From the IMG/VR virus record IMGVR_UViG_3300012920_009134, positions 1 through 64,000 of that record: a stretch of DNA of 64,000 nucleotides; one strand, written 5' to 3'. The number at the start of each line of letters is the position of its first letter. Within the stretch, counting starts at the first letter, position 1. The position numbers and the translations under genes are program-made. The notes under the pieces were generated by a model. That model ran no database searches, had not been told where the DNA came from, and saw nothing but the letters and a program-made list of their open reading frames with translations. The DNA comes from a virus. Positions 462-59,368 of this stretch are shown here, in pieces.

Positions 462-887
462 ATGAAAAACTTTGTTCTTATTTTGTTTTGTTTGTTAATG
501 TCCTGTGGTGGATCCCAACAAGTCGGTGTTGATAACACCGAACTAACTGTTGCTTATGATGGCGTTGTTGAGGCGCGTTCTGGTGGTGCTTATATTGATC
601 TACACACTCTTAAGAGACTTTTAAACGATAAGAGCAAAGATCAGTATTTTATTTTTTCTGACGATATGTGCGGCGGATGTACGTCTTTAAAGAAAAGTCT
701 TCGCGAAAGAAAGTGGATTGATGAAGTGAACCTTTTAAATCTTGATGATAAGTTCGTTCAAGAACTTGCCGGATTAATGAAAATCAGGGTCTTGCCTACG
801 ATGGTTGTTGAAAAAAAGAACGACAAGGGTGTCTTAATTTTTGAAGGACCATCTGAAATCATGATGTATCTTGCTAGGAACCTTTAA
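462..887 (+). CDS. Thioredoxin-fold lipoprotein
   Basis: Signal peptide with lipobox LLMS-C; CGGC (CxxC) motif; cis-Pro-like LPT motif; GGAGG RBS. Confidence 0.7.
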   Translation: MKNFVLILFCLLMSCGGSQQVGVDNTELTVAYDGVVEARSGGAYIDLHTLKRLLNDKSKDQYFIFSDDMCGGCTSLKKSLRERKWIDEVNLLNLDDKFVQELAGLMKIRVLPTMVVEKKNDKGVLIFEGPSEIMMYLARNL

Positions 888-1385: not shown

Positions 1386-2249
1386 ATGAGGAAATTAAAC
1401 AATCTAATTGGCAACACACCAATTATAAGAATATCAGATAATTTATACGCTAAACTTGAAACCTACAATCCCACTGGTTCTGTAAAAGATCGTATGATAT
1501 CTTATGTTGTACAAAAGGCACAATTGTATGGTGAAATAAAAAAAGGTACAATTCTCTGTGATGCCACGAGCGGGAACACCGGCATTGCTTTAAGTATGGC
1601 TGCGGCACACCTTGGATTAACTTGTGTTATTTTTATGCCAAGAAATATGTCCGAAGAGAGAAGGCAAATGATGAAAATATATGGTGCAAAAATAATCGAT
1701 GCACCTGATGATGACTTCGCTGGTGCTATAACCATGAGAGATGCGTATCTTGCTGGTAATCCAAACGCATGGTCTCCAATGCAATTTAGTAACCGCAGAA
1801 ACATAGAGTGTCATTTTTTTAACACTGCACCAGAAATTCATAGGCAGGTTGTTTCCTTGAAGAGACCATGGGAAGCATTTATACACGGTTCTGGTACAGG
1901 TGGTACCATTGAGGGTGTTCGAAGATACATACAGCATCAAAGATTAAACACTAAAGTCTGCATGGTTAAACCATCAGAGTCTCCTCATGGCATTCAAGGA
2001 ATTGCAGATGGTAAAGAGTTCTTAGCAAAAGAGAAAGATATGCATGAAGTTATTGAAATTAAAACAGAAGATGCGATTAAAAGAGCAAAAAAACTTGCTG
2101 AAGAAAAAGGTCTTTTGGTTGGCATAAGTTCCGGGGCAAACATTCTTGCATCAGAACTGTGGATAGAACAAAACAAACCCATGGGAAACATAGTTACAGT
2201 ACTCTGCGATAGGGGTGAAAGATATATGTCAATATACGGAAGTGTGTAA
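1386..2249 (+). CDS. cysK: Cysteine synthase (O-acetylserine sulfhydrylase, CysK/CysM family)
   Basis: NPTGSVKDR (PLP lysine), TSGNTG, GSGTGGT, GISSGA, DRGERY. Confidence 0.9.
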   Translation: MRKLNNLIGNTPIIRISDNLYAKLETYNPTGSVKDRMISYVVQKAQLYGEIKKGTILCDATSGNTGIALSMAAAHLGLTCVIFMPRNMSEERRQMMKIYGAKIIDAPDDDFAGAITMRDAYLAGNPNAWSPMQFSNRRNIECHFFNTAPEIHRQVVSLKRPWEAFIHGSGTGGTIEGVRRYIQHQRLNTKVCMVKPSESPHGIQGIADGKEFLAKEKDMHEVIEIKTEDAIKRAKKLAEEKGLLVGISSGANILASELWIEQNKPMGNIVTVLCDRGERYMSIYGSV

Positions 2250-2258
2250 CTATTTATT
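2249..2258 (+). promoter_or_regulatory. Candidate phage late promoter ACTATTTA
   Basis: Same motif is intergenic upstream of 5490, 11595, 16004 and 59386. Confidence 0.55.
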
Positions 2259-2278
2259 ATATCATGGAGGGCAGTAAT

Positions 2279-2353
2279 ATGAAAAATCAGAAAAAATGTG
2301 AATGTTGTTGCTGTTGCGCTTGCTGCTGCAACTGTGCGTGTCATAAGGAGTAG
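2279..2353 (+). CDS. 24-aa cysteine-rich micropeptide MKNQKKCECCCCCACCCNCACHKE (metallothionein-like); not in ORF track
   Basis: Translated by hand; GGAGG at 2266-2270, 8 nt before ATG; 11 Cys; stop lies 4 nt before the next gene. Confidence 0.7.
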   Translation: MKNQKKCECCCCCACCCNCACHKE

Positions 2354-2357
2354 GTAA

Positions 2358-2873
2358 GTGAAACTTATAATGGAAAATTGGAGGCAGTATATTAACGAGT
2401 CTGATGATCTTGAAGAGTTAGACGAAGGTATCAAAGATATACTTAAAAAGGCAGGGATGATTGGTGCATTTGGTGCTGCTGCGCTTGGTGCAGGCGGCGC
2501 TGAAGCAAAACCTTTCAGTCAAGACACGACACTACCTCAAAATGCTAGAGAAGTTGGATTGACTAAATATGATAGTGAACACATTGTTCATATAAAGAAA
2601 AAGATAAGAGAACAAGTAAGTATTGCTATCGACAAACTCGCAGGACGCCAAGACCAATTAATGAAACTAGACAATGGCAAAAAGGCAGAGGATGGAAATC
2701 CAGCGGCGCTTCTTCTGGGTAAACTATTTAAACAAGTAGAAAAAGCACTACCTACTTTTGTTAGTAGCGATGAGGAGATCTACAAGATTGCTGAAGACAT
2801 TGTTGAGAGAAATCAAGACTTGGATCCTTTTAGCATAAAAAATCAACAAAAAAGACAAGGAACAAGAAAATGA
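2358..2873 (+). CDS. Putative internal head protein with leader MKLIMENWRQYINE and an Ala/Gly hydrophobic stretch
   Basis: AAGGAG RBS; leader similar to 2870 and 4558. Confidence 0.55.
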   Translation: MKLIMENWRQYINESDDLEELDEGIKDILKKAGMIGAFGAAALGAGGAEAKPFSQDTTLPQNAREVGLTKYDSEHIVHIKKKIREQVSIAIDKLAGRQDQLMKLDNGKKAEDGNPAALLLGKLFKQVEKALPTFVSSDEEIYKIAEDIVERNQDLDPFSIKNQQKRQGTRK

Positions 2874-10556: not shown

Positions 10557-11561
10557 ATGTTAGCAGATGTTATTGTAGACCTTCAGTATGGCGACTGTGG
10601 AAAAGGTAAAGTTGCCAGTCATCTCTGTAAGATTAATGATTATACACACGTTGTGAGATACAACGGTGGATGCAATGCAGGTCATACAATCTACCACAAC
10701 GGTCAAAAACTGATCACACACCATATTCCTTGTGGGGTTTTACACGGAATAAAATCTATCATTGGTCCCGGTTGTGTTCTTAATGTTGACCAGTTTTTTA
10801 AAGAAATAAAAGAATTAGAAGATGTCGGGATTGACACCCAAGACTTGATCAAGATTGCAAGCAACGTCCATATCATTACAGACTTTCATCTTGCGCAAGA
10901 TCGAAAAGATTCCGAAATAGGTACAACAAAACGAGGTAACGGACCTGCGTATCGCGATAAGTATGCAAGAAGGGGGATGATCGCTTTAGAGATGCCCGAT
11001 TTGGCACCTTTTATTATCGATATGTATGAAGAATTGCACAACAACAAGGAGCATGATGAAATTAAAGTACTTTTTGAAGGGGCCCAAGGATTTGGTCTCG
11101 ATATTGATTGGGGCGACTATCCTTATGTTACTTCTTCGCATTGTACTGTGGGTAGTGCAATCCTAAACGGCGTACCACCACAAGCAATCAGAGATGTTTG
11201 GGGGGTATGTAAGATTTATGAAACATATGTAGGAGCAAAGGAGTTTCAGGGTATTGATCCAGAATTAGAACTTATTAGAGAGGTTGGTCACGAATATGGT
11301 GCTACCACAGGGCGTCCACGACAGACCAACTGGTTGGATTTGGATATATTAAAAAAAGCATCGCGAATTAATGGTGTGACAAAAATGGTAATGAATAAGG
11401 TTGATATATTAGACGAGGTACAACACTGGAAGTTGTACGAGGGGATTAATGCATTGGAGTTCAAGAACGGCGAATCAATGCAATCTTACATTAAGACTTA
11501 TTTAAACGATTACGTACCAAGCATGGAAGTGCTGTTTTCAGGAAATAAGGAAGTTATATAA
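10557..11561 (+). CDS. purA: Adenylosuccinate synthetase (short form)
   Basis: QYGDCGKGK (catalytic Asp kept), GGxNAGHT, FEGAQG, YPYVTSS, TTGRPR, NKVD. Confidence 0.92.
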   Translation: MLADVIVDLQYGDCGKGKVASHLCKINDYTHVVRYNGGCNAGHTIYHNGQKLITHHIPCGVLHGIKSIIGPGCVLNVDQFFKEIKELEDVGIDTQDLIKIASNVHIITDFHLAQDRKDSEIGTTKRGNGPAYRDKYARRGMIALEMPDLAPFIIDMYEELHNNKEHDEIKVLFEGAQGFGLDIDWGDYPYVTSSHCTVGSAILNGVPPQAIRDVWGVCKIYETYVGAKEFQGIDPELELIREVGHEYGATTGRPRQTNWLDLDILKKASRINGVTKMVMNKVDILDEVQHWKLYEGINALEFKNGESMQSYIKTYLNDYVPSMEVLFSGNKEVI

Positions 11562-11570
11562 CTATTTAAT
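11561..11570 (+). promoter_or_regulatory. Candidate late promoter ACTATTTAAT
   Basis: Identical 10-mer at 59359-59368. Confidence 0.55.
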
Positions 11571-15969: not shown

Positions 15970-15979
15970 ACTATTTATG
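15970..15979 (+). promoter_or_regulatory. Candidate late promoter ACTATTTATG
   Basis: Intergenic, upstream of the 1900-aa fibre gene. Confidence 0.55.
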
Positions 15980-23115: not shown

Positions 23116-23334
23116 ATGGTTAAGACTATAGTCTTTGTGGGTGCCCTGCTTTGTGTAGAAGCAGAACAAAAAATGGTGTGCCAAAACAAAGATACGCAAA
23201 ATACAACAATAACTTTTCAAAGAACAGTTACAGATTGGCAAAAAATAACCTCACAAACTAATTATAATGGTAATCAAGAGGTGAAAATTGAAAGAAAAAA
23301 TACTTGTCCTGGACACAAATGTCCTTTTAACTGA
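23116..23334 (+). CDS. Small hypothetical protein, possibly secreted
   Basis: AGGGG RBS; hydrophobic N-terminus. Confidence 0.4.
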   Translation: MVKTIVFVGALLCVEAEQKMVCQNKDTQNTTITFQRTVTDWQKITSQTNYNGNQEVKIERKNTCPGHKCPFN

Positions 23335-24604
23335 TAGCAACTCTATATTAAATTTTGAAGAAGCAGACATCGCAATACCTTTAAAGGTTTTAGATGAGAT
23401 AGATAAACATAAAAAACGCCAAGACTCAGTCGGTATGCATGCAAGAAGCATTATTAGAAAACTTGACCAACTAAGAGAGGATGGTAATCTTTTTGAAGGT
23501 GTCGACATCGGACCTGGTAAAGTTTTTGTAAAGGGGTATGACCCTTTCAAACTACCAGACGACCTAGATATTGAGAATCCAGATAATCAAATCATCGCTA
23601 CAGCATTAAGTTTAAAAGCGGAAAACGAGGAAAGTAACGTTGTTCTTGTTTCTCGCGATATTAACATGAGAGTTAAATGTGATGCTCTAAACATTGCTTG
23701 TGAAGACTATTCAAACGACCAGGTTGTGGAAGATATTGAAGGTCTATACACCGGACTTGCCGAGTGTTTAGTTGACGATCAAATGGTTGATTCTGTTTAT
23801 AAAGATGAGGGAGTCTACATAGATCCCGATGAGGCAGACTTGCAACCAAACCAATTTGTTATGCTAATCAGTAACTCAAACGAAAAGAAGAGTGCTCTTG
23901 TGAGGTTTACAAGTTATGATAAACCTGTAGAAAAAGTCGATTCATTTAAAAAAGGTATTTGGGGTGTTCGCCCTAAAAACAAAGAACAAAACTTTGCACT
24001 AGATTTGTTAACAGATCCTGATATTCCTTTAGTTACAATAATCGGTAAAGCAGGTTCTGGTAAAACTTTACTAGCACTAGCATGTGGACTGCAACAATGT
24101 TTTGGTGAAACTGCAAACGATAGAAAATATTCGAGAGTTATAGTTACAAAACCTGTAGAACCGGTTGGAAAAGATATTGGTTTCCTGCCTGGCACTATGG
24201 AAGAAAAGATGATGCCATGGGTTGCTCCAATACAAGATAATCTAAAAAATCTTATGGGTAATGATAAAGTTACTCTCGACATGTACATGGACGAGGGAAA
24301 GATAGAAGTTGAAGCAATGACTTTTATTCGTGGTCGATCTATCGCTAATGCTTTTATTATTATTGATGAAGCACAAAACATGACAAAACACGAAATCAAA
24401 ACTGTGTTAACTCGTGTAGGAGAAGGAACCAAGATTGTTTTAACAGGTGATATTGAACAAATCGACAACGTATACCTTGACGAAACAACAAATGGACTTA
24501 CATATGTAATAGATAGATTCAAAGATCAGTGCAGCGCTGGTCACATTACTTTGGTTAAGGGAGAGCGATCAAAGGTTGCAACCCTTGCTGCTAGATTGTT
24601 ATAG
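23288..24604 (+). CDS. phoH: PIN-PhoH (PhoH2/YlaK-like) protein
   Basis: VLDTNVLL PIN domain; GKAGSGKT; GFLPG; RGRS; IIDEAQN; GDIEQID. Confidence 0.92.
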   Translation: MKEKILVLDTNVLLTDSNSILNFEEADIAIPLKVLDEIDKHKKRQDSVGMHARSIIRKLDQLREDGNLFEGVDIGPGKVFVKGYDPFKLPDDLDIENPDNQIIATALSLKAENEESNVVLVSRDINMRVKCDALNIACEDYSNDQVVEDIEGLYTGLAECLVDDQMVDSVYKDEGVYIDPDEADLQPNQFVMLISNSNEKKSALVRFTSYDKPVEKVDSFKKGIWGVRPKNKEQNFALDLLTDPDIPLVTIIGKAGSGKTLLALACGLQQCFGETANDRKYSRVIVTKPVEPVGKDIGFLPGTMEEKMMPWVAPIQDNLKNLMGNDKVTLDMYMDEGKIEVEAMTFIRGRSIANAFIIIDEAQNMTKHEIKTVLTRVGEGTKIVLTGDIEQIDNVYLDETTNGLTYVIDRFKDQCSAGHITLVKGERSKVATLAARLL

Positions 24605-58973: not shown

Positions 58974-59359
58974 TGTATGGGATAGGACCAAAACTACCAA
59001 TCAGATTTACTAAGCAGGGTACACCACTCAATACGCTTACTATCAGAGAGAATACGCAACAAAATTTGAAAAACTTAATCTTAACTTCTCCTGGTGAAAG
59101 AATAATGGATATTGATTTTGGCGTTGGACTTAGAAGATATTTATTTGAAAACAACACCCCTGTTGTACGACAAAAACTAGAAAACAGAATAATCGAACAA
59201 GTTGAGAGGTATATGCCGTTTGTTAACATAAAAGGAATTGATGTTGTATATTCTGATAACAACCCGAATGTAATGGACATAAAATTAAGATATGGAATAA
59301 GTGGTATTGCTTCTGAGGAATTATTGTCTCTATCACTAGATCCAAAAATAACTTCATAA
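58973..59359 (+). CDS. Baseplate wedge/sheath initiator, gp25/GPW family
   Basis: QNLKNLILTSPGERIMDIDFGVGLRRYLFE. Confidence 0.9.
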   Translation: MYGIGPKLPIRFTKQGTPLNTLTIRENTQQNLKNLILTSPGERIMDIDFGVGLRRYLFENNTPVVRQKLENRIIEQVERYMPFVNIKGIDVVYSDNNPNVMDIKLRYGISGIASEELLSLSLDPKITS

Positions 59360-59368
59360 CTATTTAAT
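59359..59368 (+). promoter_or_regulatory. Candidate late promoter ACTATTTAAT
   Basis: Intergenic, upstream of GAGGA RBS of the gp6-like gene. Confidence 0.55.

Follow-up and report, generated by a model that had tools for sequence, protein, structure and literature searches.

Directly behind a gene of the cysteine synthase family, the window analysed here (64 kb of viral DNA, the first part of a 99.7-kb IMG/VR record with a CheckV completeness of ~ 12% and a GC content of ~ 37%) carries a micro-ORF on the plus strand (2279..2353, from the ATG at 2279 to the TAG at 2351-2353). It has 24 codons plus the stop, and 11 of these codons specify cysteine. Judged from its relatives in other phages, the micro-ORF is a genuine gene, with purifying selection acting on the cysteines, on their spacing and on the tail of the peptide. 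We give roughly even odds (a probability of about 0.5) to the view that its product is a minimal metallothionein-like thiolate peptide; metal binding, the identity of the metal and a benefit to the phage are what we infer here from sequence. Among the other genes of the window are those for PhoH, for glycosyltransferases, for a subunit of the baseplate wedge and for a structural protein of the virion, a set consistent with a large myovirus-like phage of marine origin.

The cysteine micro-ORF and its conservation

The micro-ORF occupies the gap that follows the cysteine synthase-family gene (1386..2249, +). As the preliminary description had proposed, the encoded peptide has 24 residues with 11 cysteines, and a Shine-Dalgarno sequence GGAGG (2266..2270, +) lies 8 nt before the ATG. 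Four relatives lack the in-frame ATG further upstream, at 2264, or have it in another frame, and position 2279 is therefore taken as the true start. The cysteine codons (6 TGT and 5 TGC) form consecutive runs of five and three. From the first to the last cysteine, the core (2297..2341, +) spans 15 codons and follows the pattern C-x-CCCC[C/A]-[A/S/P]-CCC-x-C-x-C; it is succeeded by a His-Lys-Glu tail (2342..2350, +). The Lys and Glu codons of this tail, AAGGAG (2345-2350), double as the Shine-Dalgarno sequence of the next gene, whose GTG start at 2358 lies 7 nt further on, so the ribosome binding site expected within the last codons is indeed there. No other dense cysteine frame turned up in any of the six frames of the 99.7-kb record.

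Are the frame and its cysteines kept by selection? The case for a gene had been made to depend on this point. Relatives were collected by a scan of metagenome contigs with the CysK of the window as the query, which gave 54 loci. With the window counted, 19 loci keep the same small frame directly after cysK. In these carriers, the identity of CysK ranges from 99% down to 77%, and there are 16 distinct core DNAs and 14 distinct peptides. Ten cysteine columns are invariant among the 16 core DNAs; eight of the ten occur with TGT as well as TGC, whereas the 20 first and second positions of these ten codons are free of change (Fisher p = 7.7e-6). The two other reading frames are not conserved in the same relatives, being either scrambled or stopped. 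At the N-terminus, 6 to 11 variable residues rich in Lys precede the core, and every change of length among them is in frame.

Another question is whether selection sees the peptide or only a supply of cysteine codons. The span from the first to the last cysteine is always 15 residues in the carriers. Three variable core positions switch together as linked allelic forms (CA..N, CS..D/S and AP..P). [quoted passage not shown] The preference for AAG as the tail Lys codon (14:2) suggests that a ribosome binding site constraint is added to that on the protein. Taken together, the fixed span, the synonymous-only tail and the linked substitutions argue that the peptide itself is functional.

Raw scans for cysteine runs in viral and cellular contigs yield mostly microsatellite artefacts, and one could thus imagine that the micro-ORF is no gene and merely a degenerate TGY repeat that is open by chance. 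We give this explanation next to no chance, since purifying selection in the relatives is specific to one frame, the Shine-Dalgarno sequence and the start are conserved, indels occur in frame only, and Tandem Repeats Finder detects no tandem array at the micro-ORF, even at a score of 30. The earlier statement that the stretch is not a simple microsatellite is upheld by this last result and by the synonymous turnover of cysteine codons within a maintained frame.

The layout is constant among the carriers: the cysK stop overlaps an 8-mer, ACTATTTA, and is followed by a spacer of 28-38 nt that contains (T)ATGGAGG, then by the micro-ORF and, after 2-8 nt, by a gene with a characteristic N-terminal tag. 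Both the 8-mer (2249..2256, +, in the window) and (T)ATGGAGG are kept, the former in nearly all relatives. A candidate late promoter had been placed upstream of the micro-ORF; what stands of it is the conservation of this 8-mer after the cysK stop, whereas its number of copies in the window does not exceed chance, and neither a sigma-70-type promoter nor a terminator was found on the plus strand. In the 99.7-kb record, ACTATTTA occurs 8 times, always on the plus strand and in most cases directly at a gene junction (in the window at 2249-2256, 11561-11568, 15970-15977 and 59359-59366; in the record at 89089 and elsewhere). Its placement makes it possibly a promoter-like or junction motif.

Neighbouring genes and the history of the cassette

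The constant upstream neighbour of the micro-ORF encodes a PLP enzyme of 287 aa that resembles CysK and CysM (Pfam PALP, E = 2e-53); against the NCBIfam cysKM model, it scores 254 bits, which is below the cut-off of 344. Viral cysK has been described as an auxiliary metabolic gene, and all the functional motifs listed for it (KDR, TSGN, NTG, QF, GTGGT, GI and SSG) are visible in the translation of the window gene (Kieft et al., bioRxiv 10.1101/2021.01.05.425418). The difference is that here a cysteine-rich peptide adjoins cysK, while that study mentions neither a cysteine-rich peptide nor a metallothionein. On the far side of cysK, a thioredoxin-like lipoprotein with a lipobox and a CGGC motif is encoded at 462..887 (+; Pfam Thioredoxin, E = 3e-4, below the cut-off), and homologues lie upstream of cysK at the matching place in four relatives (L384, L391, L397 and L406). 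The micro-ORF is thus set in a thiol context, with a CysK-family enzyme that retains all catalytic motifs and an adjacent thioredoxin-like lipoprotein. A gene on the minus strand between these two (884-1318), whose product starts with MPRF..NPRYFLNE, is also conserved beside cysK in relatives. Positions 1-396, where the record is truncated at its beginning, hold a fragment of a PHO4-like phosphate transporter (a weak Pfam match), and a full PhoH gene lies at 23288-24604; the two suggest a phosphate-related auxiliary gene set. The record of the window contains no tmRNA or tRNA gene.

Downstream, the next gene (2358..2873, +) starts with GTG 4 nt after the stop of the micro-ORF and encodes 171 aa that include no cysteine and open with the tag MKLIMENWR. 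No family match was obtained for the genes that follow the micro-ORF. In the relatives, they are of at least five kinds, from 85 to 306 residues long, with the shared start MK[LT]xM[EQ][NS]WR; in the relative with 99% identity (L379), the peptide is identical and the downstream gene is a different one. The same tag (also as MKLLLENF) opens many otherwise unrelated genes, including those at 2358 and 2870 and others in the window and those in loci L379-L427. Behind cysK, one gene is exchanged for another between close relatives while the N-terminal tag stays, and the shared 5' tag sequence may therefore be a vehicle of gene shuffling or the mark of a fate that these genes have in common.

In the CysK tree, all carriers of the micro-ORF fall into one clade. 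One subclade consists entirely of carriers (11/11, support 98/98), and in its sister subclade carriers occur side by side with non-carriers whose CysK is nearly identical. Alignment of the DNA of carriers with that of non-carriers reveals a clean indel of ~ 85 nt, and without this cassette the same Shine-Dalgarno sequence directly serves the downstream gene. The restriction to one clade and the clean indels point to a single origin and several recent losses of the cassette. It therefore appears dispensable although selected where present, which weighs against the explanation we favour. In many close relatives, cysK occurs without the micropeptide, and the proposal in the preliminary description that demand for the peptide accounts for the adjacent cysK gains no support. 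Carrier loci were found through CysK, and the adjacency to cysK is confounded by that route; the constant linkage may be plain synteny within one lineage. The single RNA sequencing run that was found contains short contigs from a relative at 90-95%, which cover cysK and the downstream gene in part and leave out the micro-ORF; as the library is an oligo-dT one that may contain DNA, the run speaks neither for nor against expression.

Searches beyond the CysK relatives were dominated by negative results. Neither Pfam nor PHROGs nor NCBIfam gave a match for these cysteine micropeptides. An exhaustive comparison of the subfamily profile with 1.84 billion representative proteins returned one singleton (P0130), an 88-residue call in which the N-terminus of a RuvX/YqgF-like nuclease (~ 63 residues) passes without a frame change into an exact peptide of the subfamily, the join being at the peptide's own Met, on an ENA contig of 5.5 kb. 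Either recombination or a chimeric assembly gave rise to this protein, which is the sole instance found independently of cysK. The ORF versions looked up in a collection of 15 billion predicted proteins were absent from it, and the best score in the ESM Atlas was 0.76, below the lead threshold. Raw DNA scans for C5-x-CC and C5-A-CCC yielded no genuine subfamily member and were dominated by TGY microsatellites and antisense repeat frames; a scan of viral and cellular genome contigs for the full scaffold with N spacers likewise gave no genuine member among the matches listed. The pattern CCC-x-C-x-C-H-K-E had four matches in viral contigs, all with internal stops, and these were discarded as chance. 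No cysteine micro-ORF was found at the matching place in cupin homologues (28 loci) or in IMG/VR relatives of CysK at 70% identity. A metallothionein-like peptide of phages is not known to have been described, and the subfamily reported here, which we refer to as 'CHKE' after its C-terminus, had not been noted before.

A metallothionein-like role and its alternatives

A metallothionein-like role is, from the sequence, the reading that would best fit the composition and the rigid spacing of the cysteines. The 14 distinct peptides are 23-29 residues long, consist of cysteine to 34-48% and contain no aromatic and no aliphatic residue. A hydrophobic core is therefore not possible, and in the reducing cytoplasm such a peptide could consequently be expected to fold only around metal. 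Without metal, AlphaFold predicts no fold with confidence (pLDDT 57). We propose that the fully hydrophilic peptide of 24 residues, whose 10-11 cysteines and single histidine are set in a scaffold fixed at 15 residues, would act as the peptide itself and would wrap a small metal-thiolate cluster of Zn, Cd or Cu(I), possibly an iron-sulfur one; loaded with metal, it would buffer or sequester metal and thiol equivalents in the infected cell. The gene would form a compact cassette between the cysteine synthase gene and the next operon, with a strong Shine-Dalgarno sequence of its own and a second one in its last two codons for the downstream gene.

Known metallothioneins provide the standard of comparison. 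Among the shortest is the copper metallothionein of Neurospora, with 25 residues; cyanobacterial SmtA holds a Zn4Cys9His2 cluster, and the alpha domain of mammalian metallothionein contains 11 cysteines and a CC-x-CC-P motif. Classical metallothioneins are built mostly on C-x-C and C-x-x-C, and runs of four or five adjacent cysteines are unusual in them. At 23-29 residues, the phage peptides are well within the low-molecular-weight range of metallothioneins (under about 10 kDa) and are close in size to the shortest known. They also share the high cysteine content arranged in C-x-C, CC and CCC motifs, the absence of aromatics, lysine beside cysteine and a single histidine, and the CCCC-A-P stretch of the AP..P allele is reminiscent of the alpha domain motif. 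The differences are that four or five cysteines stand next to each other in the phage peptide, that it is encoded by a phage, and that a sequence relation is not detectable: there was no Pfam match at E <= 10 and no PDB match for the subfamily profile at E <= 10.

The nearest variant of this reading is a role in an Fe-S or sulfur relay, in which the peptide would carry an Fe-S cluster or persulfide within a phage thiol/Fe-S module rather than buffer free metal. The thioredoxin-like lipoprotein and CysK flank the micro-ORF, and in two related loci (L027 and L020) another cysteine-cluster peptide belongs to one module with IscU, IscA and CysK. However, IscU and IscA are both missing from the window and from the 3.5-kb flanks examined around the carrier loci, 10-11 cysteines far exceed the needs of one cluster, and the neighbourhoods of the 85 loci that encode this other peptide are diverse; we consider a carrier role unlikely. 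A precursor of a modified peptide of the RiPP type, or a disulfide-rich virion or secreted peptide (the virion peptide being also an idea of the preliminary description), would agree with the small size, the richness in cysteine, the adjacent PLP enzyme and the position among genes with a shared N-terminal tag. Yet the peptide shows no division into leader and core, no signal peptide and no hydrophobic segment, it does not bear the N-terminal tag of the neighbouring genes, and no radical-SAM, YcaO, lanthipeptide or DUF692-type maturase is encoded nearby, so that neither the adjacent maturase nor the leader/core architecture of a RiPP precursor is found. The CysK-family enzyme keeps all canonical cysteine synthase motifs and is present without the peptide in many relatives, and this possibility is very unlikely in our judgement.

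The alternative that addresses the codons instead of the peptide is a cysteine-sensing leader ORF, as the preliminary description had also suggested: a ribosome pausing for scarce charged tRNA-Cys would gate the overlapping downstream gene. There is precedent in the polycysteine sORFs of mycobacteria (the 'Cys ribulon'), which are leaderless and precede cysteine-pathway genes and in which an RNA duplex hides the downstream ribosome binding site (Canestrari et al., bioRxiv 10.1101/834739). The likeness is considerable, as here too a short ORF with consecutive cysteine codons (up to five, where at least two are typical of an attenuator) stands directly before a gene in a neighbourhood of cysteine metabolism. 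The micro-ORF adjoins cysK, it stands as the first cistron where the downstream operon begins, as a leader ORF is expected to do, and its stop precedes the next start by 4 nt. Its last codons contain the Shine-Dalgarno sequence of the next gene, at 2-8 nt ahead of the start of that gene, and a ribosome paused on the last cysteine codons would cover it, so that some coupling is possible. Of four testable features of such attenuators, however, the leader proposal lacks three. The ORF is led by a Shine-Dalgarno sequence (GGAGG, conserved in relatives), and its initiation thus appears not to be leaderless at the 5' end of a transcript. No RNA duplex that would sequester the downstream ribosome binding site emerges, given that the mRNA folds no better than its shuffles (z = +0.67) and that the consensus fold of 16 sequences reaches -4.2 kcal/mol with no covarying pair. 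The cysteine-pathway gene lies upstream instead of downstream, and the variable downstream genes of the relatives include no recognised gene of sulfur metabolism, that of the window encoding a protein without cysteine. Moreover, the exact cysteine spacing, the His-Lys-Glu tail and the linked substitutions are conserved, none of which a codon counter needs, and relatives without the cassette keep the same Shine-Dalgarno sequence ahead of the same downstream gene. A leader function is thus unlikely.

Further cysteine-cluster micropeptides in related phages

The 'CHKE' subfamily has counterparts. A family with the core H-CCCCC-G-CC (hereafter H-C5-G-CC; 31-49 aa) was found at 85 viral loci with good Shine-Dalgarno sites. 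Its members begin with a conserved amphipathic segment, MKxxLH.L.NLFN, before the histidine and the cysteine core. Two diverged members differ by 13 synonymous and 5 non-synonymous codons, with all ten cysteines kept. In L027 and L020, the gene is part of a module shared with cupin, IscU, IscA and CysK, and in L027, L406, L409 and L426 a distance of 2-2.7 kb separates it from the same cysK. A tblastn search of GenBank phages with one member gave no match.

Several observations concern the surroundings and the branches of this family. A phage tmRNA follows the gene in 13 of the 85 loci; such tmRNAs, with a tag ending in ..ALAA, were seen at L027:2180-2484, at L020:1277-1587 and among L176-L263, often directly downstream of the micropeptide gene. 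In L020, the micropeptide gene is directly followed by a homologue of the window gene at 884-1318. Four members (L223, L227, L234 and L246) possess an AT-hook-like C-terminal extension, RRRGRPRKK, which hints at nucleic acid binding in that sub-branch.

Like the window peptide, the H-C5-G-CC family is unannotated, Shine-Dalgarno-led and encoded by large marine phages, with about ten cysteines that include a run of five and one adjacent histidine. Its histidine precedes the cysteine run, whereas that of the window peptide follows it, and the latter has a short Lys-rich N-terminus and a different spacing, lacking both the N-terminal segment and the H..G core. A profile comparison (hhalign) of the two gave a probability of 77% over 11 cysteine-dominated columns only, and homology between the 'CHKE' subfamily and the H-C5-G-CC family is not demonstrable on present sequences. 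A third type was found in more distant relatives, 2-3 kb upstream of cysK (L413:1181-1276, L415:2266-2346 and L429:1420-1503); it has 21-26 residues with 7-8 cysteines in CC-x-CC-type spacing and a polar N-terminus. In addition, an ORF of 90 residues that ends in C-x-x-C-D-C-x-x-C-D-C-H lies ~ 3 kb downstream of cysK in loci of higher GC content whose CysK has 70% identity (L023-L026:7725-7994; also L410 and L411).

The presence of at least two further types of cysteine-cluster micropeptides in related phages looks like convergence, and we count it in favour of the metallothionein-like reading. More tentatively, and as a possibility that we hold to be short of probable, these unrelated families ('CHKE', H-C5-G-CC and the third type) could together make up a class of phage auxiliary genes that has gone unrecognised and whose products, mini-metallothioneins or thiol effectors, would re-set the host economy of metal, sulfur or redox equivalents during infection. 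Such a class, if real, would have been missed so far because gene finders skip genes of this kind, and the micro-ORF illustrates the extent of selected coding sequence below their cut-offs. If the peptide binds metal, a phage would for the first time be assigned a function of the metallothionein type, and the peptide would be among the smallest metallothioneins known; metal and thiol buffering would then join the host processes that ocean viruses reprogram, beside the known cysteine synthase and Fe-S genes.
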